A stretch of 64,000 nt of DNA from positions 1-64,000 of the IMG/VR virus record IMGVR_UViG_3300020193_000005; one strand, 5' to 3'. The position numbers and the translations under genes are program-made. The DNA comes from a virus. The first letter of the stretch is position 1; the number at the start of each line of letters is the position of its first letter. Below, in pieces: positions 25,249 through 44,700 of the stretch. Below the pieces are notes generated by a model. That model was not told the DNA's origin. It ran no database searches and saw only the letters and a list, made by a program, of their open reading frames with translations.

Positions 25249-25473
25249 TTGTGGCGGTCAGTAGTTCCGGAGGTCTCCTTGGGTTCCGAATTTTTGAGAA
25301 TTTTGTCGGCGGTCTGGTCAAATATGACCTCCAGGTCGACCATCGCTAATACGTTGATGGCTTCATTTATACTGTTTACTGGAATAGGTACGTTTTTGAT
25401 TAATCCGATCGTCGGCTTCATAACCCTTGGAGTCGTCTGCGGAGCCGTCGGATACCTGCTCGGAATGGAGTAA
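25249..25473 (+). CDS. Small membrane protein upstream of portal
   Basis: Two hydrophobic helices; such genes commonly precede HK97-type portals; start uncertain (ATG at 25323 possible). Confidence 0.6.
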   Translation: MWRSVVPEVSLGSEFLRILSAVWSNMTSRSTIANTLMASFILFTGIGTFLINPIVGFITLGVVCGAVGYLLGME

Positions 25474-25480
25474 ACCCTCA

Positions 25481-27715
25481 ATGGCCTGGAACACGACGTC
25501 GAATAAGAGCGCTGGCACGAGTGGCGTGAAAGCCCTGAACCCCGGGGCTCCCGTCGCATACAACCCGTCGCAGGTCGGCAAGCCGTACCGAGACGCCTGG
25601 GACATAGAGCGCGCCTACAGAGAGGGGTTTCAGAAAGTCACGTGGGTGAATAGATGCATAGACGCCATCGCCGGAAACCAGTCGCGTCTCCCGGTCGTAC
25701 TAAGAGAGAACAACGATCCCGCGGGAAGAATCGTAAGACAGTCGGACAGAAAAATCCTGGACATACTCAACACCAAATCGAACATGGGCGAGAACTCGTT
25801 CGTTTTCAGGTACCGGCTCTCATCGCAATTGCTGATGTCGTCGCGCGGGGCGTTCATCGAGAAGATTCGCGGTAGGGACGGCGAATTGATCGCCCTACAG
25901 CTACTTCCTCCGCAACACACCTCCCCGATACCGGATCCAAGGAGGTTCGTATCCGGTTTCGAGGTCGACATGAGGAACGGCACGAAGGTCGTTTTAAAGC
26001 CGCAGGACGTCGTGTGGATCAGGAAACCGCATCCCCTGGATCCGTATTTGTCGTTGACCCCGATGGAGGCCGCCGGAATCGCAATAGAAATAGAGAATTT
26101 GTCCAAGCTTTACAACAGGAATTTCCTTCTCAACGACGGAAGACCCGGCGGGTTGCTGGTCGTGCGCAGCGAAATAGACGACGACGACAAGGACGAACTG
26201 AGAAATCGTTTCAGGGGAAACGTCAGTAGGGCGGGAGCCGTCACCGTGATATCCGCCGACGAGGGAATAGATTTCGTGGACACCGGGCAGAGCCCCAGGG
26301 ACGCCAATTACGTACAAATGAGGCAAATTCAGAAAGAAGAGATACTCGCCGCTTTCGGGGTTCCGGAGTCCGTAATCGGGAACGCCGCCGGAAGAACTTT
26401 TTCCAACGCGGCGGAGGAGCACAAGGTTTTCTGGAACGAAACCATGCTTCCGCACCTCGAGACGATCGCCCGAGGACTCGACGAAGTCGACGACGATTAC
26501 TACATAGATTTCGACGTCACCGACGTTCCGGTTCTCGTGCTTTACAAACAGGAGCGAGATAGGTATCTGATGAACGAGTATCAAACCGGTCTCATCAGCG
26601 GCAACGAATACAGGGAGGGTGCGGGAAGAAAGAAAATAGATTCCGAATTGATGGACGCGATGTTGACGAACCCCAATCTCACGCCGATCGGATACACGAA
26701 TAAGAAGTTCGAACCGCAGGCGGCGATGGCCATGCCAGGGGGTTCCGTGCCCCCGGCTGGAGCCCCGGGCGGACCGATGATACCCGGTACGCAACCGGCT
26801 CTACCCATGGAACCGTCGATGGCCGCTCCCCAGGAGGGGATGACGGCGGCTCTCGCGGCCGAGGGAGAGGTGCCGATGCAGGTCAAGTCGGTCGAGATCG
26901 ACGAACTCTCGGAGACCGAGAATTTGATGAAGAGCGCCGTCGTCGACGACGAACAGATCCAAACCAAACTCCTCAACGACGAATGGAGCTACAAGGTGGA
27001 GGAGTCGCTGACCAGGTGGAGCGAAATCCTCGAGTCGTCGCTCGAGCGTTTCGTAGAAAGACAGCAACGCGTGGTGCTCGAGAAGGCGACCGGCTCCAAA
27101 TCCAGAAAATCGCTCGAGGCGAAATCCCTGGATTCCGAGACGATATTCGACCAAGCGGTATGGGACAAACAATTGAACGAGGATTTGCGTCCGATAATCA
27201 ACGGAATAATGAACGACGCCAGCATGTCGGTTACTCAGGATTTCGGCATGCAGGCGGAACCCGACGAGGAAGAAATCAAGACGCAGCTTGATTTACAAAT
27301 CGAGAGAATTCAAAAGATAAACGAAACCACGGCCAAGGAGGTTTCGGCCGCCGTTCTTATCGCGGTTTCCATGGAGGACGGCGAGGACAAACTCGGAATG
27401 CTCAAAGCCGCCCTCATAGCGGTCTTCGCCAACATGCTCGCCAAAAGAAAGAAGGTCATAGCGGAGAACGAGGCTTGGACGGCCTACAACACCGGATCCT
27501 TCTTGGCCGCTAAATCGGTCGGCGCATTCAAGAAAACTTGGATTTCCGAGAGGGATAAGAACGTGAGACCCGAGCACGCGGCGTTGGACGGACAAACCGT
27601 TCCGATAGGGGAACCGTTCGCGGTGATGGGGGAGAGCATCAAATACCCAGGAGATCCCTCGGCACCGCTGCATCTTACGATAAATTGTCGTTGCAAAGTT
27701 CGTTTTGCAATTTAG
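25481..27715 (+). CDS. HK97-type portal protein fused to a MuF (SPP1 gp7-like) head morphogenesis domain
   Basis: Portal motifs (F.NDGRPGG, EILAAFGVP, FSNAAE, GLISGNEYR); C-terminal KTW....D..VR..H..LDG...PGDP.....INCRC. Start taken at ATG 25481. Confidence 0.92.
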   Translation: MAWNTTSNKSAGTSGVKALNPGAPVAYNPSQVGKPYRDAWDIERAYREGFQKVTWVNRCIDAIAGNQSRLPVVLRENNDPAGRIVRQSDRKILDILNTKSNMGENSFVFRYRLSSQLLMSSRGAFIEKIRGRDGELIALQLLPPQHTSPIPDPRRFVSGFEVDMRNGTKVVLKPQDVVWIRKPHPLDPYLSLTPMEAAGIAIEIENLSKLYNRNFLLNDGRPGGLLVVRSEIDDDDKDELRNRFRGNVSRAGAVTVISADEGIDFVDTGQSPRDANYVQMRQIQKEEILAAFGVPESVIGNAAGRTFSNAAEEHKVFWNETMLPHLETIARGLDEVDDDYYIDFDVTDVPVLVLYKQERDRYLMNEYQTGLISGNEYREGAGRKKIDSELMDAMLTNPNLTPIGYTNKKFEPQAAMAMPGGSVPPAGAPGGPMIPGTQPALPMEPSMAAPQEGMTAALAAEGEVPMQVKSVEIDELSETENLMKSAVVDDEQIQTKLLNDEWSYKVEESLTRWSEILESSLERFVERQQRVVLEKATGSKSRKSLEAKSLDSETIFDQAVWDKQLNEDLRPIINGIMNDASMSVTQDFGMQAEPDEEEIKTQLDLQIERIQKINETTAKEVSAAVLIAVSMEDGEDKLGMLKAALIAVFANMLAKRKKVIAENEAWTAYNTGSFLAAKSVGAFKKTWISERDKNVRPEHAALDGQTVPIGEPFAVMGESIKYPGDPSAPLHLTINCRCKVRFAI

Positions 27716-27775
27716 TTTCAGTAAATTCAGCTAGTTTCTTCAAACCGTTTCAAAAACTTCCCGCGGATAACGATT

Positions 27776-27789
27776 CCGTGGTTTATGAT
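27776..27789 (+). promoter_or_regulatory. Putative extended -10 promoter CCGTGGTT-TATGAT
   Basis: Intergenic, 14 nt before ATG 27804; matches the 17567 motif. Confidence 0.45.
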
Positions 27790-27803
27790 TGACGAAGGCA
27801 CTG

Positions 27804-30800
27804 ATGAAAAACACGCAAATCACAGAAGACTCTTCGTACTTGTACAAGTCCCTAAACGGACAGATCAACATAGACGAAGCCAAGGGCGTGGTGGAGGCGT
27901 TCGTCGCCGGAATCGGTAACAAGGATTCTGTAAACGACATATGTTTACCCGGTTGCTTCACCAATTCCCTCGCCAGACGAAAACCCAGAGTCGTGTGGGG
28001 TCACGACTGGAATTCCCCCATCGGCAAAGTTTTGGAGATATACGAAGTAGGACCGAACGATCCGCGACTGCCGGCGAGAATGAGAAAAGCCGGCGTCGGC
28101 GGTTTGTACGTCAAGGTTCAATTCAACCTGAAGGCGGAGAAGGGTAGGGAGGCTTTCGCCAACGTTTCGTTTTTCGACATGGAGCAGGAATGGTCGATCG
28201 GGTACAAGACCCTCGACGCGGTATTCGATCCGGTGCAAAACGCGAATCTCCTCAAGGAGGTGGAGCTGTACGAAGTCTCTCCCGTGTTGCACGGCGCCAA
28301 TCAACTCACCGGAACCATATCCATCAAAGCCGACGGGACCGAAACGCAGATCAAGGACGGGCAGGGTCCTTGCTGGCCCGGATACAAACAGGTCGGCACG
28401 AAGAAGGGCAAGGGCGGGAAGATGGTTCCCAACTGCGTGCCAGTCGACGGCAAATCGCTCGAGGACGAGTGTTGCCCTGACGAAAAAGCGGCCGATAAAC
28501 CGGTCCTACGCGATCCCAAGGGTGGATTGACGGCCGCCGGGAGGGCCCATTTCAAGAGAACCGAGGGCGCGAATCTGAAACCGGGCGTGAAGGGCGCGGC
28601 CGACACGCCGGAGAAAATGCGCAGGAAGGGTTCCTTCCTCACGCGCTTCTTCACCAATCCCAGCGGTCCGATGAAGAAACCGAACGGCAAGCCCACCAGG
28701 CTCGCCCTCTCCGCCGCCGCCTGGGGGGAGCCGGTACCCCAGGACGCGTCCGATGCCGCGAAATTGGCGGCAAAGGGTAGAAGATTGCTGGAGAGATACG
28801 AAAAGACCAAGAAGAAAAAGAAAGACGATTCCGATTCGACGCAAAACAAAAATCACGTAGAGGCGATTTATTCCGCCTACAATTCGCAAAGCAACGAAAG
28901 CTTCGGCAGAGCCTCCATGTTGACCAGGTCCCTGGCGAAACATTTCGGCGGAGCGGTAAGACTCGTGAAAGCCGACAATGACATAGCGATTTTCGAAATG
29001 GGTGCCGGTACCGGGACGGAAATGCTGAGAGTCGCCTACCACTACGACGGCGACGAGTTCATGTTCGGGACTGCGCAAAAAGTAAAGCCCGAAACCGTGT
29101 TCATCCCGATCGGTAGCGAGGGCGCTCCTACGGGCGGGATCGTCACCTCGCCGTCCGCCACGACTCCGCAGACCCCGATGCTCGCCGCGGGCGTTCCCTC
29201 GGCATCGTGTTGCGATTCGTGCGCCGCCGGGAAGAACGTTTGCGCAAGTCCGAAATCTTTGGCGACTTGGGAAGAATTCACGGAAAAAAACGACGGTAAT
29301 CATTCGTTGTTCGTTCTCGAAAGAGGGGACGACCCGACGGAGATTTTTGACGCGTTGTCCGCCGTAGGCGAATATCACGGATTTTCTGTCAAGACCCTCA
29401 ACGACGGATTCCTCATCGAGGACTACGACTCCCTTTCGGACGAAGCCGTGGAGGCGGTGGGGACGCTGGGTCGCGCGATGGAGCAAAAAGCTTTACGCAG
29501 ACTGAGGGGGCGAGGCTCACGAGGGAACATGGATCCGCGAACGGCCATAGACGCCGATCTGGACAGACTCGTGCTCGAGGGAATACCGATGATCAACCTC
29601 GGTCGCGGCGTACCGGATCCCACGCCTTTCGGGAATGTTCCCGATGTGGGAGGGGGTCGTGCCGAGAGGCTTGCGCGAACTCTTTCTCCGAGGGTGCGAC
29701 GTAACCAGCAGAGGACGATGGGACAACTTGAAGGTGCAATAGAGCCTTCGCTCATGGATAGGGCCACGGAGAGGGTCGCTAGGGGAATGGACGCCGCCGA
29801 GACCAGAATCAGCGATCAAATGGGTCGTTTCGTTGGCGATTTAAGGGAGGAGCGAGACGCGAGAAAGGCGAGAAGGTTCGAAAAGGCGAAGAAGAGGGCT
29901 CAAAAGAGGGGTTGGTTGCCCACCGAAGAACAACTCGCCCGAAAGAGGTCGGCGGAAGAAGCGCTTTTCGACTTGGATGATCAGGAGGACATGCTTCTCG
30001 CGATGGAGCAAACGAGACGATCCCGGATGGGTCTTCCGGCGATGTCGCGAGAAGAGTCGGCAAGAATGCTCGACAGGAACATTCCCGATCGCCACGAAAA
30101 ACGCAAGAAACTTTACGACGAGCTTTACGGCGACAGCGGAGCGATGCGAAGCGAAATGCCGGCCGTACCCTACCCGCAACGACAACCAGAGAAAGTTCCC
30201 GAGCGCGTCCCCGAGAAAGTTCCAGAGAAAGTTCCCGAGAAAGTTCCCGAGAAAGTTCCCGAGAAAGTTCCCGAGAAAGTTCCCGAGAAAGTTCCCGAGA
30301 AAGTTCCCGTAAAACCGACGCGCGTCCCCGAGAAAGTTCCCACGAAGCCGCAACGCGTCCCCGAGAAAGTTCCCACGAAGCCGCAACGCGTCCCCGCCAA
30401 GCCGCAACGCGTCCCCGAGAAGGTTCCAGTGAAACCAGCGCGGGTCCCCAGGAAGGTTCCAGCACGCACCTCCGCCGACTCCGGGGCGATGTCGAAGGAG
30501 CCCGAGAAAGGCGATCAAATTAGATTTTACGGAAGCTCGGATCCTTACACGAAACTACAGCCCGGAACGATGGGCAGGGTGACGAGAGTCGCTCCGGACG
30601 GAACGATTTCGGTGGAGTGGGAAGACGGAAGTTCTTTGAAGATGATTCCCGGCGAGGACGTCTTCCAAATCATGCCGCCGGCTAAAACCTACGCAGACTT
30701 GAATCAACTCATAGAAAGCCCTTGGCGCTTTGACGAAAACATAAGTCTTCACCTGGATCCGAAAACCGGAGTTATTTATGAAGCCGACGCCTACGGTCAA

Positions 30801-33800
30801 TTGGTCGAACGACTCGGAGACGGGGCGAAGCTGACCCAATTGAACGAGTTCAACATCGATGATACCGACTCCGTCGGCTACGACGACGCAGGCAATCTGG
30901 TCAATCGCGGACCGGACGGGGACGAAATAATCTTCACGGCGGAGCAGCTCGGCGATTCGGGTGCGATGACTCGTCCGTTGCCGGGAATGTCCGAAGAAGA
31001 ATACGAGGCATGGCTCGCGGAACATCGCGCAAAGAGCAAGTGGAAGGGGCGGAGGGGCACCGGGATCTTCGTGGACCCCGACACGGGCAAGCCGGCGAGT
31101 CCGAAAGACAAAGAAGTCCTCGACAAAGTGATGGAACAAATGCTGGCTGCCATAGAAAGCGACGATCCCGACTCAATTCACTCCATGGAAGATCTTACGA
31201 ACGCTACAAGGAATCCGGACGGAAGCTGGTCCTTTGACTCTCCCGAGGCCGTCATAGAAATAATAGAGGGAGAGGCGGCCGGGGATACGCCAGAAGAAAT
31301 TCTGGACAGAATTCGCCGCGCCAACGGCGAAGTGGACGACGAAGCGGAAGGCGATTCGGGTGAAATGACCGTGAATCGCGGGGTTCCGGACGACGTGCGT
31401 AGGGTCGTACAGGGAACGGACAGAAGCAATTTGGTCGGCGGGCGTGCCGAGCCGATGAGGAGAGCCAACGAAGCCCTCGTTTCCGCGGCCAACCGCACGA
31501 TTCGTCCGGAATCGAGCGGAGACACCACGGATCCCGCATCTCGGGCGGCCAGCGACATCATTAAAACTTTTGATCAGTTCAAGCTTTCTCAGGCGGAAGT
31601 GGACGATCACATCGAGAGAATCAAGGCGTCCATGGGTCGGATGGTCGGCGAGGTCGGTAATTCCGAGTCGAGAGAAAAAATCATCGACACCTTCAATAGG
31701 GTGCTCGGAAAACTCACTCCGGAACAGATCGCCTTCGAGCGATCGAGGATAAGGGAGAGAATAAAGAACGCCGGGTTCGACGAAATGCGCCGTATGTTCG
31801 GATTGGACGACGAATCCAATTCCGGAGCCATGGCGAAAAGAGCCGCCAAAACCCCGGAAAAACTGGAACGATTCGAAAGGGAAGATCTCGGAAGGCGCAT
31901 ATGGCTGGAGCGAACCTACGACGGCAAGACGCTCGACGACGTAGCCAGAAAACACAGAATGAGTCGGGAAGCCGCGCGTCAACTGGAGATTATGCACGCC
32001 AGAAAACTGAACGGAATGGATCCCTCATCGGACAACAGGGTAGGTAGATCGACCATAGAAAGAGTCGTGTCGAGATCCGCAATCGGGCTCTCTGATCAGG
32101 AAGCCGACCTCCTACGCAGAAGATTCGACGGAGAACTCCTTGAAGAGTCGGCCAGGAGAATGAGGATGGACAAAAACGCCGTTCGGAGAATGGAACAGCT
32201 CGCTCTCAGAAAGATGCGGGATTTCATCGTGGCGGCGGAAAAATTCGAAAACGAAGCGGATTCCGGCGCGATGCGTCGCGGATCTGGAGGCACGGCGGCA
32301 GACGCCGACCGCCCAAAAGGTCGTAGGTTTCCGGGGCGTAGAGCCCGGAAGACACCAGGTTTCACGATTCCCGAAATGGTGGAGTCGCTAAGCGACAGTT
32401 ACGGCAGCGACATGTCCAGATCCGACATCATCGCCGCCGCCGTACTGATGCGCATAAGAAGATCGATGACCGACAAAATAGACTATCTACTGGCGAAGGG
32501 AGCGAGAAGTAGGAGATTCTCCGCCCTGGCCGACGAAATAACCAAAGCCGACGCCGTCTACAAAGACGGCTCGACCACCGGATCCGCTTTCGTCAAGACC
32601 GTTTTCGGCTCCAGCGCTGAATTGAAAAAACTGATCCAGAGAAGAGCGAACAGAATCGACGAGGTAAAAGACGTTGACGGAATAGTGAACGCAAGAACCG
32701 CCGTAACCCTCGAGGAGGTCGGCGGCGACGTGAGGGAAGCCGCGCAAAAATTGGGCATTGATCCCAAGGTCGTGGAGAGACGGGCTATCGCTCACTCGAT
32801 CATCGCCCAAGCGATAGCGACTCCGGAAACGCTGAAAATAGCGTCGCAGATAGATTCGCAATTCGCTTACGGGATCCTGTCGCCGAAACAAAAAACGCTT
32901 ATCAAATTATGGTTGGCCGGTTTCAGCCCCGAGGAAATAGCCGAGACGCTAAACATGACGAGAGCCGACGCATGGAGGGATCTCGGAAGAGCGGTAAGAC
33001 GAATGTCCATGGGCAACCCCGAATGGGTGAGCGAAAAAAACAGAAGAACCATCGCTTCCGTTGATTTGGCCAGCGACGAAGCCGGAGTTTTCTCGGAGTT
33101 GACGCTTTCCGACGGATCGAAACACAGGAACTACCTATCAAAGAGCCCCATCGGTAGCGGAGCAAGCGGAGCAATGGCCAGGGCCGAGGTGGTGAGCGTC
33201 GCCACGGACGCCGGCGAGGAAAGTTACGTGATGGTTCCGGCGAGAGGGGACAGGAATCCTTCATCCTTCTCGCTCTTCCCGTTGAGAACCAGGAACGAGG
33301 ATTTGATTTACGAAGCCGTCGCGGCGGAGGCGAGCGGGATGCTCAATTCCGGTTTGTTCGCGAGAATAGTCACGGACGAATCCGGTGATCAGAAATTGTT
33401 CGCCGGATCCCTCGGAAAGAATTCGATAAAAACGCTATCGGAGATCGGAACCGTCAACGAGAGAACTCCGTTCGTGACGTCTCTCGCTTCGGACGAAAGG
33501 TACGGAAAAGCCCTTCTAGCGAAGTACGACGATCTAAGGAACGTCCTATCCGATACTCCGTTCTCGGAGAATCTGGGCGTGGACGACCGTCGTCTTTCCA
33601 GACTGTCGGAAATCTCGGAAAAAATAAGGAACTCGGCCGCCGTAACGCCGGAAGAAATAGTCGTCATGGATTCCATATTGTCCGAAATCGACGACTCGAG
33701 GCGATCGGCCATACGTCGCCTACCCCACGATTTCGACGAGGAGACGACCGATTCCTTCGTCAACGCCGCCGACGATAGGAGATTTTCGTACGCAGAAAAC

Positions 33801-36800
33801 GACGGCGGAAAAACTGTTCCGTACGCCAAAAGAATGCTCGGGTTGGGTTCGCCGAACGCGAGAGAATTTTACCTACGCGTCGGCAAAGACGGAAAACTTT
33901 ACAAGTGGAATCATCCGAACAATCTCGAAAACGACATAGGATCCTGGGCGGATTCCGCGGTCGGGGAGGAATTCATTCCGTCGAGAGACGACGTCAGGGC
34001 GATTGCTTACGACTCGACCGGCGTTACGAGATCCCTCGTTGGCGACGGAGATTCCGGGGCGATGAGTCTTCCCGGAGAGGGAACCGAGTACCGAGAGGAC
34101 GACAACGAAGTCGTCATAATTTCTGACGGTATTTCGGAAGCATCCATCGGCGGGGCGGCGTATTTGGCCATCGGTCAGAATAAACCCCTGTCTTTTGCGT
34201 ACTACAAGAAGGGATCGGGATGGGAAAAAAGATCGGTCGTTCCGAGGGATCTGGTCAGAGGGGTGTACAAAGCCGTGAAACGCGACGACGGATCAACCGT
34301 CTTCGTTTTCCATAAAGCCGACGCCCCGAAAGGATATTTGTTCCTTAGGGCTTTCGATCCGAATAGGAACGAGGCGAGAGAATTCAGGCTGGACAGAATC
34401 GGCGGAATCGGCAACCTGACGTCTCAACCCAAATCCACGAACGCCGCGCCGTCCGGAACTCCGCAGGGCAATACCCCGACGGGTTCGACGCCGCCGAAAC
34501 AAGTTTTCCCGAAACAAATTTTCACTCGTGCCGGCAAAGTCGGACAAGCGACCGTGTGGGTTGATCAACATCCGGTCAGACCGAGCGCCAGACAATCCGC
34601 GTACGAAAAGACGATCGTGGTCGCCGATGCCCCGGTGGCCGGCTATCTCGACGAAGCCTTGAAAGAAATCGGGGAAGGGAGTTTCTTGGAGGGTTATCAG
34701 GGCGACGCTTCGGTGGTGCTTTCGGTCCTGATGGACGCGCTCGGCGACGAAAAACATCCGTTGCACGACAGAGCCAACAAATACATGCTCGCCATGGAAT
34801 CGAAAAAATTAGGCAAACTCCTCGGTAGGACGGCATACAGAAAATCCGGCCTGCAAGGTCCTCCGCTCAGAAGAAGGGCCAAACCGTGGGGTGGCGACCG
34901 GGGAAATACCAAGTTGGCGGATTTCGAGTCGTGGACCGATCCGCAGCAGATGTACGACTGGGCGCGAACCGGGGACTATGTCCTTTTCGACGTGGAAACG
35001 ACCGGATCCCCGGGACTCGATGCATCCGCCGCCGAGATAGCGAGAAAAACCCCGCAGGGAAGGGTCGTTCAAATTGCCATGACCCCCGTAAAGAACGGAG
35101 TCCCGGGACAAACGAAAATTTGGTGGGTCAAACCATTGGACGACGACGGCAACGCAGTGGAGATGAGCGACTGGACGAAGGAAAACGTGCCCGGTCCCGA
35201 CGGTGCAAGAACGCTAACCGACCAGTTGGCGATGAACGATCCGAGATTCGTGGATCCCGCGGTCGCGTGGAGGGAGGTGTCCGATTGGCTCAAATCGGAA
35301 TTCGGGGATTCTCCGATTCTGGTCGGATACAATTCGGCCAACTTCGACATGCCGATCGCCGAAAGAATGATCGACGACCGAGATCTCAAAATTGGTTGGT
35401 TCGACGTCATGGTCCTCGCGGATCAGGTTCTGTACGCGGAAAGCCAGGCCTTCGACGACCTTAGCAAGATTTCCGTAGATAGAAGGAAATCCGGTCGGGT
35501 CGTACCCGGTTTCGCGGCGGGAACCGTGATTAGCATGGCCGGGTTTTCTAAGCGTCATAAAGCGAACCGAGGTTCCAGACTGATATTCGGACCCGCCAAC
35601 TTTCATCCGGTACTCGACGGCAGCGGGAAGCCCACGTTCAAGCCGGACGGCAAACCGAAGATGCAACCTAAGTTCAGGATAAACCTCGAGAGTCTCAAAG
35701 AGTGGGCCGGGGTGAAAACACGAAGAGCCGCCCACGCCGCCGACGTCGACAACGACGTCACGCACAGGGTGATGCTAGCCCTGACCGAACATCAAACGAA
35801 ACGCGGCAGGGCTCTTCACATGTTCGACAAAGACTTGCGAAATCAATTGGAAAGATACCTACGGGAAGAGTACGAATTCAGGGCGAGTACGCACGAAGCG
35901 AGGAAAAACCAGGGTTCTTTCTTCGGATTCAATTCGCCCAGAGCCGATAGCGGCGGCGCGAGACCGAATGAACCGGCCGACGTCGGGGACGCTACGACCG
36001 GTTACGCCGAATCGTACGGAAATGTCGTCGGCTCTCGGGAGACCGGGAGAAGAGTTGTGGGTAGACCGTCCGTAAGGGTAATCGGCGATTATCCGGGATT
36101 GCCGTTTTACGTCGTCTCCTCGAACGGGGAGGAAACAATCTTGATAGGACCGGAATTCTGGACGGACGGAATAGACCCGGACACGAGAGAACCGTTACTG
36201 CTTAGAAACCAGAAAGCTCTGATCCCGATGATCGGACAAGCCAGAAAATCCGGACGCGGTATTCAATTCGTCTACGGGAGGCGCGACGACGGATCACCGG
36301 TCAACTACGAAATATTCGCCCTCGAACTGGTGCCCGACGACGGCATGACGATGGAGGAGGCGAGAATAGCAACCGAACGAGATCGAAGAATCAGATTTAG
36401 TCTTGCCGGAACCCTAAGAAACGGAATGTCGTTTGAATTTTCTTTCAAGGACATAGGCAATCCCGACGCTCCACCGCCCAGAGCGAGCGAATACGTTCCA
36501 ATGACGGGCGAGGAAGTTTCGGGAGTCACGGACGCGATTCTCATGACTCCGGCCCAATACTCCGATCAGTTGATGAGAAAACGCGTCATTGCGTTGCGTA
36601 ATAGTCGTAGCGGGGGCTCCGGGTCGTCGACGTCGGGGACCGATTCCGGCGCGATGTCCGGTTTGACGAATCGCTACGGCGGTTCGGGGGGATTGGAAGC
36701 GTGGATACCCGACGAGAAATATAAGTCCTTCTCCTCCATGGACGAATCTCAGCTAAGAGCGATAGTCGAACGAACCAGGAGATCCGTGAACGATTTGATT

Positions 36801-39041
36801 CTCGCCGACAAGCTGAGAGGAGTCGCCGTCAACGAGGCGCTCGACAGGCTGAGAAACGCCGAGGCGGTTTTGGCACTTTCGCGCGGTCCGGTGATCGACG
36901 ACGCCGGTTTCTCCGTTTCGAGAGGACCCGACGGAACCGTTTCCGTTTCCGGATTCACGAATTTCTCTCCGTTCAAAGCGAGATCGTCCTACGCGTTGCC
37001 GACCGGAAGGAGTCGGCGAAAGGAGATGAACAAAAACGCGCAAATATCCCTGAAATTCGACAGGGAGATCGAGAACTCCCCCAAGGGAATGGCTCTCAGG
37101 ACTTTGGCGAGAAATTTGCGAATGGATCTTGACGAACTTGGATCTCGCCTCGAGTCCCACGATTTCGGCACGTATTCGGACGCCATCTATTCGTCAGAAA
37201 TGAGAAGGAACAAAAAGCTGTTCGATAACGGTTCTCTGACGCCGGAAAACTCTGGATTGTTCCTGCCGAGAGGTGCGAGTCGAATCGAAATGACCGCGAG
37301 AATGTCGAGCGCCGCTTCCTCCATCGGGTTGGGTTTCGGCGATTCCGGAGCGATGGCCATAGAAGGACCGTACACGAAAGACACCTCGAAATACGCGGGA
37401 ATGACCGACGACGAGCTGATCGACTCGTGGAACAAAACGCTTGCCGACCTGTTCGGCGTGACGGTGGAGGGAATTTCGCCGGAACGGATCGCAGAAACGA
37501 GCAGAGGTCGTTACGGCGACAGAAACTTCAACGCCAGGGCTCATTTGATCAAATCCCACCTGGAGGCGATAGCGAGCGAAATACGAAGAAGATTCTTCGC
37601 CAGCGAGGAAGGGAAAGCCGCGATAGATCAAATCCTCGAGGAAGGAAACGACTCCGGCGCCATGTCGTTGGATCCAGACAATAAACCGTTCTCGGGATCG
37701 TTGTGGCTGGATTCGAGACTACGGGAGATGTACGGAAGTCGCTGGCAAGAGATAGCCGCCGGGATAGGTAGACGATTTGCCAACTTCGGCGACAGGAATT
37801 GGAGCGACCCGACGGACGACGACGCGGTCGATCTTTATCACTACGCGGCCATGCTGCAACACGACGCTGTCGTGAGCGTGATGAAATCGGTCTCTGGCGC
37901 GGAAGATCGCTCCGAACTTGCGCGGAGGCTTACGAACAGCGCGGTGGGCGTAGTTGCTTTTATCTCGTTGCAAATACCGCTGACGACGGAGCAGATAGAG
38001 GATCAGATACAAAGAGGACGAATGATATCCAACATGCGAGAGCTCGCGGCGCTTGATCCGTACTCCAGGGTGGAGGCGATGATCGAAAAACGAAACGCGG
38101 AGATAGTGCAGAGAGTGATGGACGCAAAGAGGAGCACGCTGACCCCCGAGGAGTTTTCCGATTGGTACAAGGGAGTCATCGAAAGACTGGCCAGAAGCGA
38201 GACGACCTTGGCCGAATCTCCGGAGGGGTTATTCGGAGAGCCGGGGGATCAAGAAGCCCTGGATCAATTCATTGATTTCTACGAAAAAGACGCGGGAGTC
38301 TCCGGGAGGACTGGCGGAACCGACGACGGGGATTCCGGGAAAATGAGCAAGTCCTCGCGCCGTTCTTCGCCCAAAGCCGTTTACGATGCCAGGAGGATCT
38401 ACGGAGAGACTCCCGAAGAGATAGCCAAGCGACTCGGAATTGGAAAGGAAAAAGTACTGGAGCTGGAACAGCGATACGTCGACCAGGTCAACGCCAGAAT
38501 ATCCGCCGCGATTGATATCAAGAAAATGAAACTGAACCGCGAGAACTATTGGCCGGTGGAAGGAGTTCAAGAAGGCGCCATAAATCGAGTATACGATGAC
38601 GACACCTCCGTAGCTTTTTACACAATGTTTGACACGCTTCTGGGGCGAAGGAGCCGTGGCGGTCACTGGTGGTCTCCGCTCAACAAAGAAGGCGTGGCAA
38701 TTACCGAAAGAGAACTCAAGGGGTACCTCGCTTATCTTTCCCGGGTCGTCGACGTTTTGGATGATGAATACAAGGATCAGGAAGCCGCGAATTTGTTCAG
38801 GAGGAGCATAAAGATTCTTTCGGAAACTCTCAAAGACGGTTCGTACGGCGACGTCACTGGTGACTCCGGGGCTATGCGCAGGAACTTCGTAGAGCCCAGA
38901 TACGACATAAAACCACATCAGGGGGGGTGGGTCATCATAGACACGAAGAACAGAAACGCCATATCCAGCAGGGTTTTTAGCGACAGGCTCGAAGCGCTCA
39001 GGGGCGCGAAGCGAATGGACAGGGGGGAATCCGTCAATTAG
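27804..39041 (+). CDS. Giant polyprotein (about 3745 aa): HK97-type prohead protease plus cargo modules (DUF6321-like, DUF4314, sigma70-r4-like HTHs, WYL, DEDDh exonuclease)
   Basis: N-terminal S78 protease (WGHDW His, WSIGY Ser, LYEVSPV..GAN); 13 DSGAM-type linkers; one uninterrupted frame. Confidence 0.9.
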   Translation: MKNTQITEDSSYLYKSLNGQINIDEAKGVVEAFVAGIGNKDSVNDICLPGCFTNSLARRKPRVVWGHDWNSPIGKVLEIYEVGPNDPRLPARMRKAGVGGLYVKVQFNLKAEKGREAFANVSFFDMEQEWSIGYKTLDAVFDPVQNANLLKEVELYEVSPVLHGANQLTGTISIKADGTETQIKDGQGPCWPGYKQVGTKKGKGGKMVPNCVPVDGKSLEDECCPDEKAADKPVLRDPKGGLTAAGRAHFKRTEGANLKPGVKGAADTPEKMRRKGSFLTRFFTNPSGPMKKPNGKPTRLALSAAAWGEPVPQDASDAAKLAAKGRRLLERYEKTKKKKKDDSDSTQNKNHVEAIYSAYNSQSNESFGRASMLTRSLAKHFGGAVRLVKADNDIAIFEMGAGTGTEMLRVAYHYDGDEFMFGTAQKVKPETVFIPIGSEGAPTGGIVTSPSATTPQTPMLAAGVPSASCCDSCAAGKNVCASPKSLATWEEFTEKNDGNHSLFVLERGDDPTEIFDALSAVGEYHGFSVKTLNDGFLIEDYDSLSDEAVEAVGTLGRAMEQKALRRLRGRGSRGNMDPRTAIDADLDRLVLEGIPMINLGRGVPDPTPFGNVPDVGGGRAERLARTLSPRVRRNQQRTMGQLEGAIEPSLMDRATERVARGMDAAETRISDQMGRFVGDLREERDARKARRFEKAKKRAQKRGWLPTEEQLARKRSAEEALFDLDDQEDMLLAMEQTRRSRMGLPAMSREESARMLDRNIPDRHEKRKKLYDELYGDSGAMRSEMPAVPYPQRQPEKVPERVPEKVPEKVPEKVPEKVPEKVPEKVPEKVPEKVPVKPTRVPEKVPTKPQRVPEKVPTKPQRVPAKPQRVPEKVPVKPARVPRKVPARTSADSGAMSKEPEKGDQIRFYGSSDPYTKLQPGTMGRVTRVAPDGTISVEWEDGSSLKMIPGEDVFQIMPPAKTYADLNQLIESPWRFDENISLHLDPKTGVIYEADAYGQLVERLGDGAKLTQLNEFNIDDTDSVGYDDAGNLVNRGPDGDEIIFTAEQLGDSGAMTRPLPGMSEEEYEAWLAEHRAKSKWKGRRGTGIFVDPDTGKPASPKDKEVLDKVMEQMLAAIESDDPDSIHSMEDLTNATRNPDGSWSFDSPEAVIEIIEGEAAGDTPEEILDRIRRANGEVDDEAEGDSGEMTVNRGVPDDVRRVVQGTDRSNLVGGRAEPMRRANEALVSAANRTIRPESSGDTTDPASRAASDIIKTFDQFKLSQAEVDDHIERIKASMGRMVGEVGNSESREKIIDTFNRVLGKLTPEQIAFERSRIRERIKNAGFDEMRRMFGLDDESNSGAMAKRAAKTPEKLERFEREDLGRRIWLERTYDGKTLDDVARKHRMSREAARQLEIMHARKLNGMDPSSDNRVGRSTIERVVSRSAIGLSDQEADLLRRRFDGELLEESARRMRMDKNAVRRMEQLALRKMRDFIVAAEKFENEADSGAMRRGSGGTAADADRPKGRRFPGRRARKTPGFTIPEMVESLSDSYGSDMSRSDIIAAAVLMRIRRSMTDKIDYLLAKGARSRRFSALADEITKADAVYKDGSTTGSAFVKTVFGSSAELKKLIQRRANRIDEVKDVDGIVNARTAVTLEEVGGDVREAAQKLGIDPKVVERRAIAHSIIAQAIATPETLKIASQIDSQFAYGILSPKQKTLIKLWLAGFSPEEIAETLNMTRADAWRDLGRAVRRMSMGNPEWVSEKNRRTIASVDLASDEAGVFSELTLSDGSKHRNYLSKSPIGSGASGAMARAEVVSVATDAGEESYVMVPARGDRNPSSFSLFPLRTRNEDLIYEAVAAEASGMLNSGLFARIVTDESGDQKLFAGSLGKNSIKTLSEIGTVNERTPFVTSLASDERYGKALLAKYDDLRNVLSDTPFSENLGVDDRRLSRLSEISEKIRNSAAVTPEEIVVMDSILSEIDDSRRSAIRRLPHDFDEETTDSFVNAADDRRFSYAENDGGKTVPYAKRMLGLGSPNAREFYLRVGKDGKLYKWNHPNNLENDIGSWADSAVGEEFIPSRDDVRAIAYDSTGVTRSLVGDGDSGAMSLPGEGTEYREDDNEVVIISDGISEASIGGAAYLAIGQNKPLSFAYYKKGSGWEKRSVVPRDLVRGVYKAVKRDDGSTVFVFHKADAPKGYLFLRAFDPNRNEAREFRLDRIGGIGNLTSQPKSTNAAPSGTPQGNTPTGSTPPKQVFPKQIFTRAGKVGQATVWVDQHPVRPSARQSAYEKTIVVADAPVAGYLDEALKEIGEGSFLEGYQGDASVVLSVLMDALGDEKHPLHDRANKYMLAMESKKLGKLLGRTAYRKSGLQGPPLRRRAKPWGGDRGNTKLADFESWTDPQQMYDWARTGDYVLFDVETTGSPGLDASAAEIARKTPQGRVVQIAMTPVKNGVPGQTKIWWVKPLDDDGNAVEMSDWTKENVPGPDGARTLTDQLAMNDPRFVDPAVAWREVSDWLKSEFGDSPILVGYNSANFDMPIAERMIDDRDLKIGWFDVMVLADQVLYAESQAFDDLSKISVDRRKSGRVVPGFAAGTVISMAGFSKRHKANRGSRLIFGPANFHPVLDGSGKPTFKPDGKPKMQPKFRINLESLKEWAGVKTRRAAHAADVDNDVTHRVMLALTEHQTKRGRALHMFDKDLRNQLERYLREEYEFRASTHEARKNQGSFFGFNSPRADSGGARPNEPADVGDATTGYAESYGNVVGSRETGRRVVGRPSVRVIGDYPGLPFYVVSSNGEETILIGPEFWTDGIDPDTREPLLLRNQKALIPMIGQARKSGRGIQFVYGRRDDGSPVNYEIFALELVPDDGMTMEEARIATERDRRIRFSLAGTLRNGMSFEFSFKDIGNPDAPPPRASEYVPMTGEEVSGVTDAILMTPAQYSDQLMRKRVIALRNSRSGGSGSSTSGTDSGAMSGLTNRYGGSGGLEAWIPDEKYKSFSSMDESQLRAIVERTRRSVNDLILADKLRGVAVNEALDRLRNAEAVLALSRGPVIDDAGFSVSRGPDGTVSVSGFTNFSPFKARSSYALPTGRSRRKEMNKNAQISLKFDREIENSPKGMALRTLARNLRMDLDELGSRLESHDFGTYSDAIYSSEMRRNKKLFDNGSLTPENSGLFLPRGASRIEMTARMSSAASSIGLGFGDSGAMAIEGPYTKDTSKYAGMTDDELIDSWNKTLADLFGVTVEGISPERIAETSRGRYGDRNFNARAHLIKSHLEAIASEIRRRFFASEEGKAAIDQILEEGNDSGAMSLDPDNKPFSGSLWLDSRLREMYGSRWQEIAAGIGRRFANFGDRNWSDPTDDDAVDLYHYAAMLQHDAVVSVMKSVSGAEDRSELARRLTNSAVGVVAFISLQIPLTTEQIEDQIQRGRMISNMRELAALDPYSRVEAMIEKRNAEIVQRVMDAKRSTLTPEEFSDWYKGVIERLARSETTLAESPEGLFGEPGDQEALDQFIDFYEKDAGVSGRTGGTDDGDSGKMSKSSRRSSPKAVYDARRIYGETPEEIAKRLGIGKEKVLELEQRYVDQVNARISAAIDIKKMKLNRENYWPVEGVQEGAINRVYDDDTSVAFYTMFDTLLGRRSRGGHWWSPLNKEGVAITERELKGYLAYLSRVVDVLDDEYKDQEAANLFRRSIKILSETLKDGSYGDVTGDSGAMRRNFVEPRYDIKPHQGGWVIIDTKNRNAISSRVFSDRLEALRGAKRMDRGESVN
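29529..29633 (+). repeat. 35-aa shared tag, copy 1
   Basis: MDPRTAIDADLDRLVLEGIPMINLGRGVPDPTPFG. Confidence 0.95.
30186..30465 (+). repeat. 12-bp coding tandem repeat (PEKV)n with degenerate KPQRVP tail
   Basis: CCCGAGAAAGTT repeated about 10 times in frame. Confidence 0.95.
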
Positions 39042-39116
39042 GTCTTACCGAACGAACCGCTATTTTTTGATAAGTTTCCTACAAATGAGCTAAGACGTCT
39101 TAGAATAGGAGTTGCG

Positions 39117-39488
39117 ATGAAGCAAATTTTCTCATACGAAACCAAGTCGGCCAGCGGGCGCCTCTTCCTCGATATGCAGGAAAGCGGGGAGCTTTTCGGG
39201 GAGGATCCAGAAGAGGAGGATTCCTACGAATACGACGAACCCGAGGACGAGGACGAGGATTACGCGTCGGGTATCACCTTGCCCGCCAAGGTGGAGGATA
39301 TGTTTCGCGTAAAGTCGGCCATCGATCCGGTGTTGGAAAAGTACGGATTTGAGAGTTTCGCCGACGTCACCGGGATACACATTCCGAGAGCCAAAATGAT
39401 GGGACCGATACTGGTTGGGGAAATCAACGCCGCCCTGGATCGGGTTTACGCAAACCAGCCCAAAACCCCGAACGACGATTCCGTCTAG
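39117..39488 (+). CDS. Acidic hypothetical protein (123 aa)
   Basis: TAGAAT then AGGAG SD then ATG. Confidence 0.7.
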   Translation: MKQIFSYETKSASGRLFLDMQESGELFGEDPEEEDSYEYDEPEDEDEDYASGITLPAKVEDMFRVKSAIDPVLEKYGFESFADVTGIHIPRAKMMGPILVGEINAALDRVYANQPKTPNDDSV

Positions 39489-39544
39489 TCAAAGGTTGTA
39501 AGAACGTGGCCCGCAACCAGAGGTATTCCCGTAAAAAGCCAGTT

Positions 39545-41728: not shown

Positions 41729-44700
41729 GTGATCGGCGAAGAAAATAACGACCGCAAGGAGAACCCGAGAAGCAGGGTGTACTTGCCGTTCGGATTCAGG
41801 AAAAAATCCATCCCGAATCCCTATACGGCACGCGACGCCGACCTGGACAGACTCGTCCTCGAAGGGATACCGACCGTCAATCTGGGTCGCGGAATTCCGG
41901 ATCCGACGCCGTTCGGCGCGGATTCGGGGCTGATGCGGAGCCAATCGCGCAGGCGCTTGGCCAGAACTATCGGAAGATTGATTCCGAAAAATCGATCCGA
42001 CTCCGGGGCGATGGCGGACGAAAAAAAGCCCACGACCCCCTCGAGGAACGAAACTCCCTACGGCGGAGATCAGACGATAATCGAGCAAGTGGTCAGCGAG
42101 GCTCGTTTTCAAAAAGATTTGGCCTCCAGGGGGGAATGGAAGGAAATTCACTACGACCACTACGACTGGTGGGCTTACCCGATCGATAGGGGAAGTGCCC
42201 AGTACGGTGATTTCTACAACGTCGCCGGCGAACCCGTAAAGAGATTAAGAAACAACATGGATTTCATAAAGGCGCTCACGGATACGATTTTGGTTCAAAC
42301 CAGGGCGCTCGGATACAACCTTTACGAAAAAACTTGGATGCAGGATCCCGAGTGGGAAAAGGGTCAGGACTGGGGTCTTGCCTATCCCACGAGAATATGG
42401 AAGATGACCAGATCCGCCCAAATTTTCGGTTTGGAGGAGGAATTTGAATCGCTGATAAACATGCAAAAGGTTTTGCAGGAGAGCGGAATCCGATTCAACC
42501 ATCGCAAGTATTGGGAAAGCCCCGGAACGGTGGACGATGTTCCGCCCATCGAGAGTTACGACGAGCCGAAAACATACTTCCGTGACTACTCGTTGGGCGC
42601 GAAACCGCGAACCCCATACGGAGAAGGAGGGGGTTCGTCCCCGTATTATCCGACGGAATACGATGAATGGGAGGCGGGAATAGACACGGAGCCCAGAGTC
42701 GGCGAATTGGAGCCCGACGACTTCGAGTCGGCGGTCGCCGGGGCTTTCGAGTTGGCGGATTTACTCAGGGAAAAATCCGAAATCGGCGACCTGGAATATC
42801 CGTACCACCACATCTCGCCGGATCGGAGGGAAGACATTGCCGATACGATAGATTTCGCGCTCACCCTGATCCCGATCGTCGACGGAGACGGATTCGACAC
42901 GGACAGAAAAGAGACGGCCGACGCCCTGGAAAAATTCGTAGTCGGCGACGATTTGTATCGAGATGACTCCGAGCTGTTGGACGAATTGATTTTACAGTTG
43001 AGAGATTCGACATACGACGGATTCTTTTCGTTCGACGAAGACAGCGGGAGGATGTCCGTTGAGCCGAAAATGAATAGGTTCAATGATCGGGTGACGACTT
43101 TGTACAACGAAGGCAAGACCCGCGAAGAGATCGCCAAGGAGCTCGACCTAAGCGTCCGTCAAGTTGATTACCTCCTAAACAAGCTCTTCGCCGGCGGGTT
43201 GGCGAAATCCCGCCACACACAGCGGGAAAAGACGGAGGAACTCATCGAACGGGTGGTGACCATGCACAACGAGGGGAAACGCACCACGGAAATCGCCGAG
43301 GAGTTGGGGCTCACCAACAACAGGGTGCAAAGATACCAATACATTGCGAGACGACGGGGATTGCTGACGACGCCCCGGAAACGCACTACGGCAGAAACGG
43401 ATGAGTTGATGAACGAGGCCGCGAGGTTGTACAACGAGGGGAAACCCCGGATGGACATAGCGAAGGAAATGAATCTTCCCGGGGAAAAAATTGGCACTCT
43501 TCTGCAACGAGCGAACGAGCGCAAGCTGATTCGCGACTACAACCCTCAAGGATTGGGAAAATTCGGGAAAACCACACTGACCCCCGAAAAAATCTCCGCC
43601 GCCGCCGACGGGTACAGGCAGGGAAAGACGTTCGCGCAGATCGCGGAAGAACTCGCGGTCACGGAAACCGCCGCCCGCAAACTCGTTGTGCAGGCGAGAC
43701 GCTTGGGGCTGGACACGGGCTCCCCTCGCAGGCGAACTCCGTCCCAGATGGAGGAATTGCTTTTGGAGGTGGCGGTCAGATACGAGGAAGGAAAGACATT
43801 CGCCGAAATCGGTCAAGAACTGGACGTTACTCCGTCGGCTATCAGGGATATGGTCGACAGGGCCGTCACGCTCGGTTTGATTCGGAGACGCGAGCGAACG
43901 CGCAGCGACACGGACGAGTTGATGAACCAGGTCATGGCCAAGCGCAAGGAGGGCAAGACCAGACGAGAAATCGCGCAGGAACTGAACGTCCCCGAAAATC
44001 GGGTCGCATACTTGGTCCAGAGGGCCAGGTTGATGAAAGCATCCGAATCGACTTCGACCGACGGATTCGACGGCGAGACGGGGAGAATGTCGAGAGAACC
44101 GGAGAGAGGCGATCTGGTCAGATTCGGTAGAAGCTCAAATAATCGGTACGTAGATGAACCCGGATCGCTCGGCAGGGTGGTGAAGGTCGCCCGTGACGGA
44201 ACCATCTCCGCGGATTTTGGAAATGGTCCGATAAAGCTGATCCCCGGCGAGGACGATTTCCTAGTGATCCCGAGACAAGTCGACGCGCTGTACGAGCTGA
44301 CGGACAACGACGGCAACGTGATGTACCTACCGGTCGAGGACGTGACGTACCCCAAGATCACCCGCGCCATGGAGGAAGCGATGAAAGCCGGGTACAGAGA
44401 AACAGGAATCATCCGAGGAAACATGCGAACATTTTTCGACGAAGCCACGGGAACCTTCAAGACATCCAGAATCGAGTCGAGGATTCTCAACGCGGAGAAC
44501 ATTGCGCCGGAAACGACGGCACCGGTTCCCCCTCAACCCGGATACCCCGAGTTCACTCGAATCGTCGGTACCGACCGAGCGCGAGGCGGGGGCGTCGACT
44601 CCGGCGCGATGGAACTGCCGGACGGAATAGACGAGGAACTTGAGGATTACGTTTACGACGATCCGCTGTTCGGTCCATCCATAAAGCATCCTCTCTTTTT

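Follow-up and report, generated by a model that had tools for sequence, protein, structure and literature searches.

The window studied here is the first 64 kb (64,000 nucleotides, nt) of IMGVR_UViG_3300020193_000005, a 109,136-bp linear viral contig from IMG/VR with a CheckV completeness of 73%. In this uncultured lake phage, a gene after the portal gene encodes a giant protein, labeled P0001, which begins with a prohead protease and continues into a long series of unrelated modules. We found that 13 linkers of the G-D-S-G-A-M type split P0001 into 14 units. We lean modestly towards P0001 being a true polyprotein, which would be cut at these linkers by its own S78 protease domain inside the head and its products ejected. 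The gene lies at the following position:

27804-39041, + strand: protease-headed, candidate polyprotein gene P0001, 3745 amino acids (aa) from the ATG, a start backed by alignment with relatives

On the + strand, the frame is open from a TTG at 27789 (3750 codons) or an ATG at 27804 (3745 codons) to 39041, with 0 internal stops; residue numbers of P0001 count from the upstream TTG. The N-terminal Met of relatives aligns with the codon at 27804, so the open reading frame (ORF) coordinates in an earlier reading of this DNA, made by a model from the letters and their translations (the sequence-only reading), are right.

Using a linker pattern that allows the observed variants, we counted 13 copies in P0001, compared to a mean of 0.04 and a maximum of 2 in residue shuffles, which served as the null. 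In a six-frame search of the window, all 21 of the 21 motif matches fell in frame and inside giant ORFs. A position-specific scoring matrix (PSSM) built from 27 sites in five giant ORFs of the contig scored the 13 linkers at 20-30.5 bits and the next best position of P0001 at -2.3, and this bimodality indicates that P0001 holds no degenerate copies. The linkers are as follows:

30132-30146, + strand: linker 1, DSGAM (aa 782-786; 30.5 bits)
30477-30491, + strand: linker 2, DSGAM (aa 897-901; 24.2 bits)
30954-30968, + strand: linker 3, DSGAM (aa 1056-1060; 26.6 bits)
31353-31367, + strand: linker 4, DSGEM (aa 1189-1193; 20.0 bits)
31818-31832, + strand: linker 5, NSGAM (aa 1344-1348; aligned joint in relatives [DE]AGM)
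32259-32273, + strand: linker 6, DSGAM (aa 1491-1495; aligned joint in relatives DAGM, SGAM or SAGM)
33162-33176, + strand: linker 7, ASGAM (aa 1792-1796; aligned joint in relatives GM or SGGM)
34050-34064, + strand: linker 8, DSGAM (aa 2088-2092; 28.2 bits)
36642-36656, + strand: linker 9, DSGAM (aa 2952-2956; 24.9 bits)
37341-37355, + strand: linker 10, DSGAM (aa 3185-3189; 25.3 bits)
37650-37664, + strand: linker 11, DSGAM (aa 3288-3292; 23.9 bits)
38331-38345, + strand: linker 12, DSGKM (aa 3515-3519; 23.8 bits)
38862-38876, + strand: linker 13, DSGAM (aa 3692-3696; 26.0 bits), followed by a 54-aa C-terminal unit

Third codon positions in the linkers were variable, with all four Gly codons in use (GGA 4, GGG 4, GGC 3, GGT 2), which indicates a constraint on the peptide and not on DNA or RNA; a DNA-level role as a recombination cassette or ribosome-binding site was ruled out on the same grounds. 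Three module boundaries, at units 6 and 7, could be aligned with close relatives, each of which has its own variant at the same column around an invariant core of Gly, 0 or 1 residue, Met, and then a small residue or Arg. Module order varies as well, with units 3 and 4-5 swapped in two relatives (L004 and L005). We consider it highly probable that the linkers function at the peptide level and likely, judging from their sequence, that they are cleavage sites. Viral polyproteins are recognized by recurrent, specific sites at domain boundaries, and P0001 has 13 of these. The likeness to RNA-virus polyproteins proposed in the sequence-only reading was well placed in that the sequence-specific linkers stand exactly at module boundaries, while the cutting itself is a prediction.

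The protease at the head of the chain is well defined:

27804-28343, + strand: S78/HK97-type prohead protease catalytic domain (aa 6-185; His72 at 28002-28004, Ser136 at 28194-28196, His168 at 28290-28292)
25427-27715, + strand: portal protein with C-terminal MuF (Pfam Phage_portal aa 74-397, E 5e-51; Phage_Mu_F aa 670-758, E 5e-9; PHROG 2662)

The domain matched Pfam Peptidase_S78 (PF04586) over aa 32-177 at 43.7 bits against a cut-off of 21, as well as the head maturation proteases of PHROG 80 over aa 6-182 (E 1e-25). His72, Ser136, and His168 were each at least 96% conserved in 150 relatives and invariant in a 36-sequence alignment (A1). An AlphaFold2 model built on a 36-sequence alignment (predicted local distance difference test, pLDDT, 79.5) found its best structural match in T4 gp21 (5jbl; Z 10.8, root-mean-square deviation 2.8 Å over 127 residues), followed by herpesvirus assemblins (Z 5-6.7). 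By this model, the catalytic domain has the assemblin fold and is an intact prohead protease, and from its sequence it looks active. The sequence-only reading, which had placed the His near 28002 and the Ser near 28194 of an intact HK97-type (S78) protease, was exact to the residue. A PDB sequence search with the domain returned no match, and a complex prediction for the domain with a 36-aa linker peptide (aa 1480-1515), run without controls, scored 0.00, which weighs neither for nor against binding. The gene also has the head-module placement expected of a prohead protease, directly after the portal-MuF gene and with an HK97-type capsid gene downstream on the same strand (contig 89144-90634; Phage_capsid E 7e-43). 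The gap to the portal-MuF gene is 88 nt, which bears out the earlier placement of a single 11.2-kb ORF directly after the portal.

The anatomy of the fusion became clear from stand-alone homologues. Between the catalytic domain and the first linker lie the following:

28377-28484, + strand: variable Cys-rich mini-domain (CWPGY...VPNCVP...CCP; aa 197-232), from alignment with relatives
28509-28724, + strand: DUF6321 domain (aa 241-312; Pfam E 4e-28), which relatives L009 and L014 have too
28851-29510, + strand: conserved post-protease module, common to stand-alone 525-590-aa protease proteins, which end here
29526-29639, + strand: shared 36-38-aa tag (NMDPRTAIDADLDRLVLEGIPMINLGRGVPDPTPFG; aa 580-617), from BLAST and hidden Markov model (HMM) searches
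29646-30131, + strand: basic helical stretch ending unit 1 (aa 620-781), in the alignment partly common to P0003 only

More distant relatives are complete protease proteins of 525-590 aa that have aa 1-190 and a block at ~360-480 in common with P0001. Their C-terminal small alpha/beta domain matches P0001 aa ~505-570, and they stop where the tag begins. The post-protease module consists of an alpha+beta domain (aa ~375-445), a Cys cluster, and a ferredoxin-like domain (aa ~505-570). Modeling of aa 355-640 gave two small domains with generic matches only (cystatin/VirB8-like, Z 7.7; ferredoxin-like, Z about 6), and an ESM Atlas search with aa 355-584 gave no match of at least 0.9. Because ~390 aa past the catalytic domain are common to the stand-alone homologues, the protease protein measures ~575 aa and the cargo ~3130 aa. 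The sequence-only reading was thus correct on the extent of the catalytic domain, the first ~180 aa, but not on the sizes, as it counted everything beyond (~3560 aa) as cargo. A complete stand-alone protease length followed by a tag indicates that in P0001 a protease gene and a tagged cargo gene are joined in one frame. This fusion, claimed from the outset, is genuine, and it is conserved in relatives.

The tag directly follows the protease module, and four other giants of the contig carry copies 60-76% identical to it close to their N-termini. Its position is kept in close relatives, and it is absent from the stand-alone protease proteins. The tag region had low pLDDT when modeled in isolation, as expected for a docking peptide. 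Besides P0001, the portal-to-capsid interval holds five more large ORFs, with ~50 kb of giants between the P0001 gene and the capsid gene. Two of them are:

41729-48271, + strand: giant B, 2180 aa, without a protease, with the tag near its N-terminus and 3 DSGAM linkers
48587-56170, + strand: giant C, 2527 aa, with 3 DSGAM linkers, a paralogous exonuclease, and no tag detected

Giant D (956 aa, 56175-59045) has the tag and then directly NVGAM, and carries a zincin-like LAFHEFGHFFD at ~aa 477 (488 when counted stop-to-stop from 56142). A Pfam search found no family in it; from its sequence, giant D could be a second peptidase.

The layout of P0001 was common among its relatives. A phmmer search with aa 6-325 against 1.84 billion cluster representatives returned 4821 matches, and our survey took the 150 best of these, whose identity over the matched part was 58% or higher. 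The protease was N-terminal (residues ~1-190) in 150 of 150. More than half of these nearest representatives (84/150) exceeded 1000 aa, with a maximum of 5358 aa, and the length survey of S78 proteins that the sequence-only reading had proposed as a check thus revealed that giant protease-headed forms are common. The lengths are lower bounds, since many entries may be truncated:

Best 150 of 4821, shorter classes: below 650 aa, 42; 650-1000 aa, 24; 1000-2000 aa, 39
Best 150 of 4821, longer classes: 2000-3000 aa, 21; 3000-4000 aa, 17; 4000-5358 aa, 7

Recurrent peptides of the giant relatives included DGFAS(R) in up to 21 copies, GMRS in 14, GLAS in 13, RLSSG in 12, and KLSSG in 10, and each lineage had its own linker (EAGM, GMRS, G[LF]AS, or [LF]SSG). 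In remote giants, the first linker appeared at aa 536-870, just past the protease module, with later copies every ~50-900 aa (typically 100-300), and in several relatives the first linker was the natural C-terminus of stand-alone protease proteins. In the large ORFs of phages with stand-alone proteases, 4-mer recurrence revealed no G-hydrophobic-[AS] code and no 4-mer with more than 4 copies, by a crude measure that overlaps the lower half of the giants and is too noisy to rely on. A FastTree phylogeny of the protease domain (190 rows) placed the complete short forms in two clades and required only 2 changes between giant and complete-short states. A 64-row clade with 99% support contained 57 giants, and linker types clustered by clade. 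In a cultured relative, Gordonia phage Hanem, a 454-aa protease stands immediately before the capsid gene.

One relative belongs to G001, a phage whose 150,897-bp genome has terminal repeats and is complete. Its gene order runs from the portal through a giant of 4905 aa that is headed by the protease and has 19 G[FLM][AS]S linkers, and then through five ORFs of at least 200 aa, to the capsid gene. Only the protease domain of this giant resembles P0001 (62.6%); its cargo is unrelated and it lacks the tag. The G001 giant carries ArdC-N, MPTase-PolyVal (E 2e-29), five KTSC, and DUF2958 domains, which place it among the polyvalent proteins as Iyer et al. 2017 defined them. ArdC-N with MPTase was found in 24 of the 62 giants of at least 1500 aa, all from the G[LF]AS and [LF]SSG lineages, and neither in the GM or G-x-M lineages nor on the contig of P0001.

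In the mechanism that we propose, the chain would enter the assembling procapsid via its protease module, via the tag common to four other giants, or both. Prohead proteases are normally procapsid components. Inside the procapsid, the serine protease would cut the 13 linkers of its own chain and, in trans, the same linkers of the other giants. About 14 products would result: a protease-plus-tag unit, a Pro-rich spacer, a DUF4314 unit, two to three sigma-region-4/helix-turn-helix (HTH) units, a DEDDh exonuclease unit, and several units of unknown fold. Once released, these would stay in the head, be ejected into the host with the DNA, and act early. That the S78 domain is the cutting enzyme has, in our estimate, a little better than an even chance, given that it is the only Pfam peptidase in the head region of the contig and the only peptidase constant across linker-bearing lineages. 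Encapsidation and ejection of the products seem reasonably probable. The sequence-only reading had suggested that fusion guarantees encapsidation of the cargo and allows processing in cis. Loading in this phage does not need the fusion, as four protease-less giants carry the same tag that P0001 has, but in tag-less lineages such as G001, with nearly all cargo on the protease, loading by fusion remains the simplest reading. Cutting of its own chain is likewise part of our proposal and fits tag-less relatives such as G001, but processing cannot be only in cis, as the same linkers occur in giants without a protease.

Several observations weigh against a polyprotein cut by its own S78 domain. NCBIfam proheadase_HK97 (TIGR01543) scored 50.5 bits, under its equivalog cut-off of 59, which marks the P0001 protease as a family member and not a close HK97 equivalog. 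The stretch from the catalytic domain to the tag holds no linker, and the first one stands at aa 782, so the protease would remain attached to a 786-aa unit. Near-linker sites do occur right after the tag in giants B (ADSGLMR, 11.7 bits) and D (NVGAMT, 10.4 bits), the best sub-threshold sites in the giants of the contig, with no such site after the tag in P0001 or in giants E and F. The capsid protein of the contig, the canonical kind of S78 substrate, contains no DSGAM and no recognizable linker-type site, and no covariation of capsid with linker code was seen between the contig and G001. The G001 capsid is ~70% identical to that of this phage, and GRNGANMP, on sequence grounds a candidate capsid maturation site, is the same in both despite the DGFAS-type linkers of G001. 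Moreover, shared descent alone would make linker types cluster by clade, so that clustering is no proof of co-evolution. Finally, HExxH motifs occur in giants B, C, and D, zincin-like in D, and another peptidase is therefore possible.

This last point leads to the alternative that survives best, although we consider it unlikely: the linkers are cut by some other enzyme, either the zincin-like domain of another giant or a host protease, perhaps in the cytoplasm before or without encapsidation, and the S78 fusion is incidental, for instance through stop-codon loss between adjacent head genes. The LAFHEFGHFFD of giant D and the other HExxH motifs are compatible with this, as is a capsid protein that does not covary with linker type. 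In other lineages, protease-headed giants carry MPTase-PolyVal zincins, proposed to be autoprocessing peptidases (Iyer et al. 2017, PMC5512222). However, neither an MPTase nor any other Pfam peptidase was detectable on the contig (best E 0.74 in a relaxed HMM search for MPTase), and 38 of the 62 giants lack MPTase although many are linker-rich, which leaves the N-terminal S78 domain as the one constant. The fusion is also conserved across deep protease clades and hence does not reflect a one-off stop-codon loss.

Slightly less likely is that the chain stays intact as one giant polyvalent protein, with DSGAM serving as flexible hinges or as docking or modification sites. There is precedent in the N4 virion RNA polymerase, which is polyvalent and packaged unprocessed (Iyer et al. 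2017, PMC5512222). Yet a hinge needs neither the conservation of five residues in 27 copies across five proteins nor their lineage-wise replacement by another fixed sequence at the same joints, and the first linker coincides with the stand-alone protease C-terminus in several relatives.

It is highly improbable that the Met codons of the linkers are internal translation starts yielding a short protease and separate downstream proteins, a scenario that the sequence-only reading had named as one that would overturn it. All linkers of this phage do end in an ATG-encoded Met, but no stop codons terminate the upstream products, and the residues upstream are conserved as amino acids with free third codon positions. 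Anti-Shine-Dalgarno pairing before the linker Mets averaged -4.4 kcal/mol, compared to -3.3 +/- 2.8 for other in-frame ATGs and -6 to -14.6 kcal/mol for most real starts, which amounts to no Shine-Dalgarno signal. In addition, relatives have Leu or Phe at the Met position of their G[LF]AS and [LF]SSG linkers.

By contrast, we regard it as almost certain that the P0001 gene is a single real ORF. The closest relatives, IMG/VR contigs L003, L004, and L007 from other samples, have co-linear ORFs of at least 3600 aa that extend past the fetched 10-kb flank, and their protease regions are 78-90% identical to that of P0001. The stretch is present in 24 lake-water metagenome runs, and contigs of four lake runs apart from the probable source covered 30 of 30 bins across positions 27000-39500 at 95-100% identity. 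In a diverged strain from run X8, four indels (-15, +18, +3, and -93 nt) each preserve the frame. The metagenome contig pieces are short, and among those listed none spans the whole ORF. An assembly chimera or a decaying pseudogene fusion, which a metagenomic contig with no listed independent piece across the entire ORF might suggest, has next to no chance given the co-linear ORFs in other samples, complete tiling in three other runs at 99-100% identity, frame-keeping strain indels, dozens of relatives of 2000-5358 aa, and intact catalytic residues; the misassembly raised as a refuting scenario is thereby excluded. In lake run X4, one contig (depth 32.8) runs straight from 31017 to 31259 and lacks 241 nt, a length not divisible by three; its source may be a related phage that carries another module there.

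More broadly, we tentatively propose, at slightly less than even odds, that tailed double-stranded DNA (dsDNA) phages of lakes and other waters share a widespread polyprotein strategy. A protease would head up to ~20 swappable effector modules joined by a lineage-specific cut-site code (DSGAM, EAGM, GMRS, G[LF]AS, or [LF]SSG) that evolves with the protease and is read in trans on tagged giants, such that one enzyme and one code would load and release dozens of injected proteins.

The cargo of P0001 combines many unrelated effector-type domains in one polypeptide, as polyvalent proteins do. Together with the protease, DUF6321, and a weak WYL-like match (aa 2181-2207, unit 9), the domain set comprises DUF4314, two sigma-region-4 HTHs, a DEDDh exonuclease, and a weak third HTH:

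30186-30428, + strand: PEKVP-type Pro-rich repeat spacer, unit 2 (aa ~800-880), between linkers 1 and 2
30504-30671, + strand: DUF4314 domain, unit 3 (aa 906-961; Pfam E 8e-12), with a paralogue in giant B at 41729-48271 (BLAST)
32088-32219, + strand: sigma-70 region-4-like HTH, unit 6 (aa 1434-1477; Sigma70_r4 E 1e-4, below cut-off; PHROG 1740 E 1e-6)
32877-33005, + strand: sigma-70 region-4_2 HTH, unit 7 (aa 1697-1739; Pfam E 5e-8, 33 bits against 25.7)
34968-35462, + strand: DnaQ-like DEDDh 3'-5' exonuclease domain (aa ~2394-2558), inside the 864-aa unit 9
38376-38465, + strand: weak HTH, unit 13 (aa 3530-3559; Pfam HTH_23 and Sigma70_r3, both below cut-off)

Unit 2 consists of PEKVP/PxRVP repeats throughout (12 exact PEKV), and relatives have other Pro-rich spacers at the same place. 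NCBIfam sigma70-ECF gave a weak match in unit 7. The exonuclease assignment in unit 9 is based on PHROG 192 (E 1e-11), PADLOC DEDDh (E 2e-6), and a paralogue in giant C (48587-56170). The Cys-rich mini-domain directly after the protease domain is present here and in L003 and L004 and absent from L005, L007, P0003, P0004, and P0008; independent lake contigs branch at it (loose ends at 28423 and 28484), which indicates that relatives with and without it co-occur.

Several neighboring features were also observed. The large terminase gene lies upstream of the portal on the opposite strand, and the P0001 gene is followed by proteins of 123 aa and 674 aa, neither with a recognized family. In relatives (G001, as L088 24744-26174, and L014 9771-11261), the protease or giant gene is followed by one for a protein of ~480-500 aa, Cys-rich at its N-terminus and very acidic in the middle, which may be a scaffold; no counterpart was recognized after P0001. 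ORFs after the relatives' short proteases, tried as capsid homologues, were rejected, as they encode acidic scaffold-like proteins instead. The capsid protein of the contig has an N-terminal helical delta-like region of ~115 aa, and its GRNGANMP lies ~53 aa before a conserved KRVRDLFP. A giant of 6493 aa (contig 69391-88872; L085) has a NUDIX domain (E 1e-7) and a Zeta_toxin domain (E 7e-9) at its C-terminal end, which are effectors of the kinase and hydrolase kinds often seen in conflict systems. On the - strand and outside the head operon, a 1776-aa ORF (6289-11619) without a Pfam match has two NSGAM 10 residues apart near its N-terminus, and the linker code may thus extend past the portal-to-capsid block.

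How does P0001 compare with known systems? In the nested or fused protease and scaffold genes of lambda (C/Nu3), Mu (I/Z), and P2 (gpO), and with the C-terminal targeting peptide of HK97 gp4, a C-terminal extension brings the protease into the procapsid, and such protease extensions are scaffolds of ~100-300 aa. P0001 is alike in having a C-terminally extended protease, but its extension is kilobases of unrelated effector-like modules. The prohead proteases of T4 and SPN3US trim targeting propeptides from ejected head proteins at short motifs (PMC7411985). P0001 resembles the systems of T4 gp21 (IPI-III, Alt) and SPN3US/phiKZ-like gp245 in its Ser/His protease of the same fold, its short motifs, and, as proposed, cargo that is targeted to the prohead and then ejected (PMC7411985). 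In T4 and SPN3US, however, the protease is a separate small protein, each cargo has its own gene and loses one propeptide, and the motifs are (L/I)xE or AxE. In P0001, by contrast, the cargo chain begins with the protease and contains 13 internal sites that would divide it into many products.

Similarities also exist with the polyvalent proteins of phages and conjugative elements, which are giant, multidomain, and virion-associated, contain unrelated effector domains, and have embedded peptidases proposed to release them. The authors who described them drew an explicit comparison to RNA-virus polyproteins (Iyer, Burroughs, Anand, de Souza, Aravind 2017, PMC5512222). Assemblin-like peptidases were seen there only at C-termini, and that paper never uses the word "linker" (Iyer et al. 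2017, PMC5512222). Here, the prohead protease is N-terminal in every case, and such forms are common. P0001 itself lacks the hallmark domains (MPTase, ArdC-N, ART, and MuF were not found), and MuF is on the portal and not on the cargo. Still, the contrast that the sequence-only reading drew with MuF-linked polyvalent proteins is less sharp than claimed, as relatives of the same architecture carry ArdC-N with MPTase. Like the polyproteins of positive-strand RNA viruses and retroviruses, P0001 has a protease within one product and a virus-specific motif, and cuts both in cis and in trans are plausible. Unlike them, it belongs to a dsDNA tailed phage with ordinary operons, its cargo is accessory rather than a replication or structural core, and the systems are not homologous. 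In the literature, we found no description of protease-headed phage polyproteins or of their linker codes.

If the linkers are cut, this would be a dsDNA-phage polyprotein system in which one protease and one short code suffice to package a large and rapidly evolving group of proteins, to be released and delivered together with the DNA. About half of the known sequence of this phage would be devoted to it. The protease module and a linker reporter would then offer a simple handle on the system, and the tag-plus-linker layout could be a natural design for loading foreign proteins into capsids. The modules between linkers form a ready-parsed catalogue of candidate early anti-host or anti-defence proteins, mostly of unknown fold. 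If the reading is true, the polyvalent-protein concept would gain a defined processing code and a defined enzyme, and the free shuffling of modules between phages would be explained, since any module flanked by the linker of its lineage would be released.

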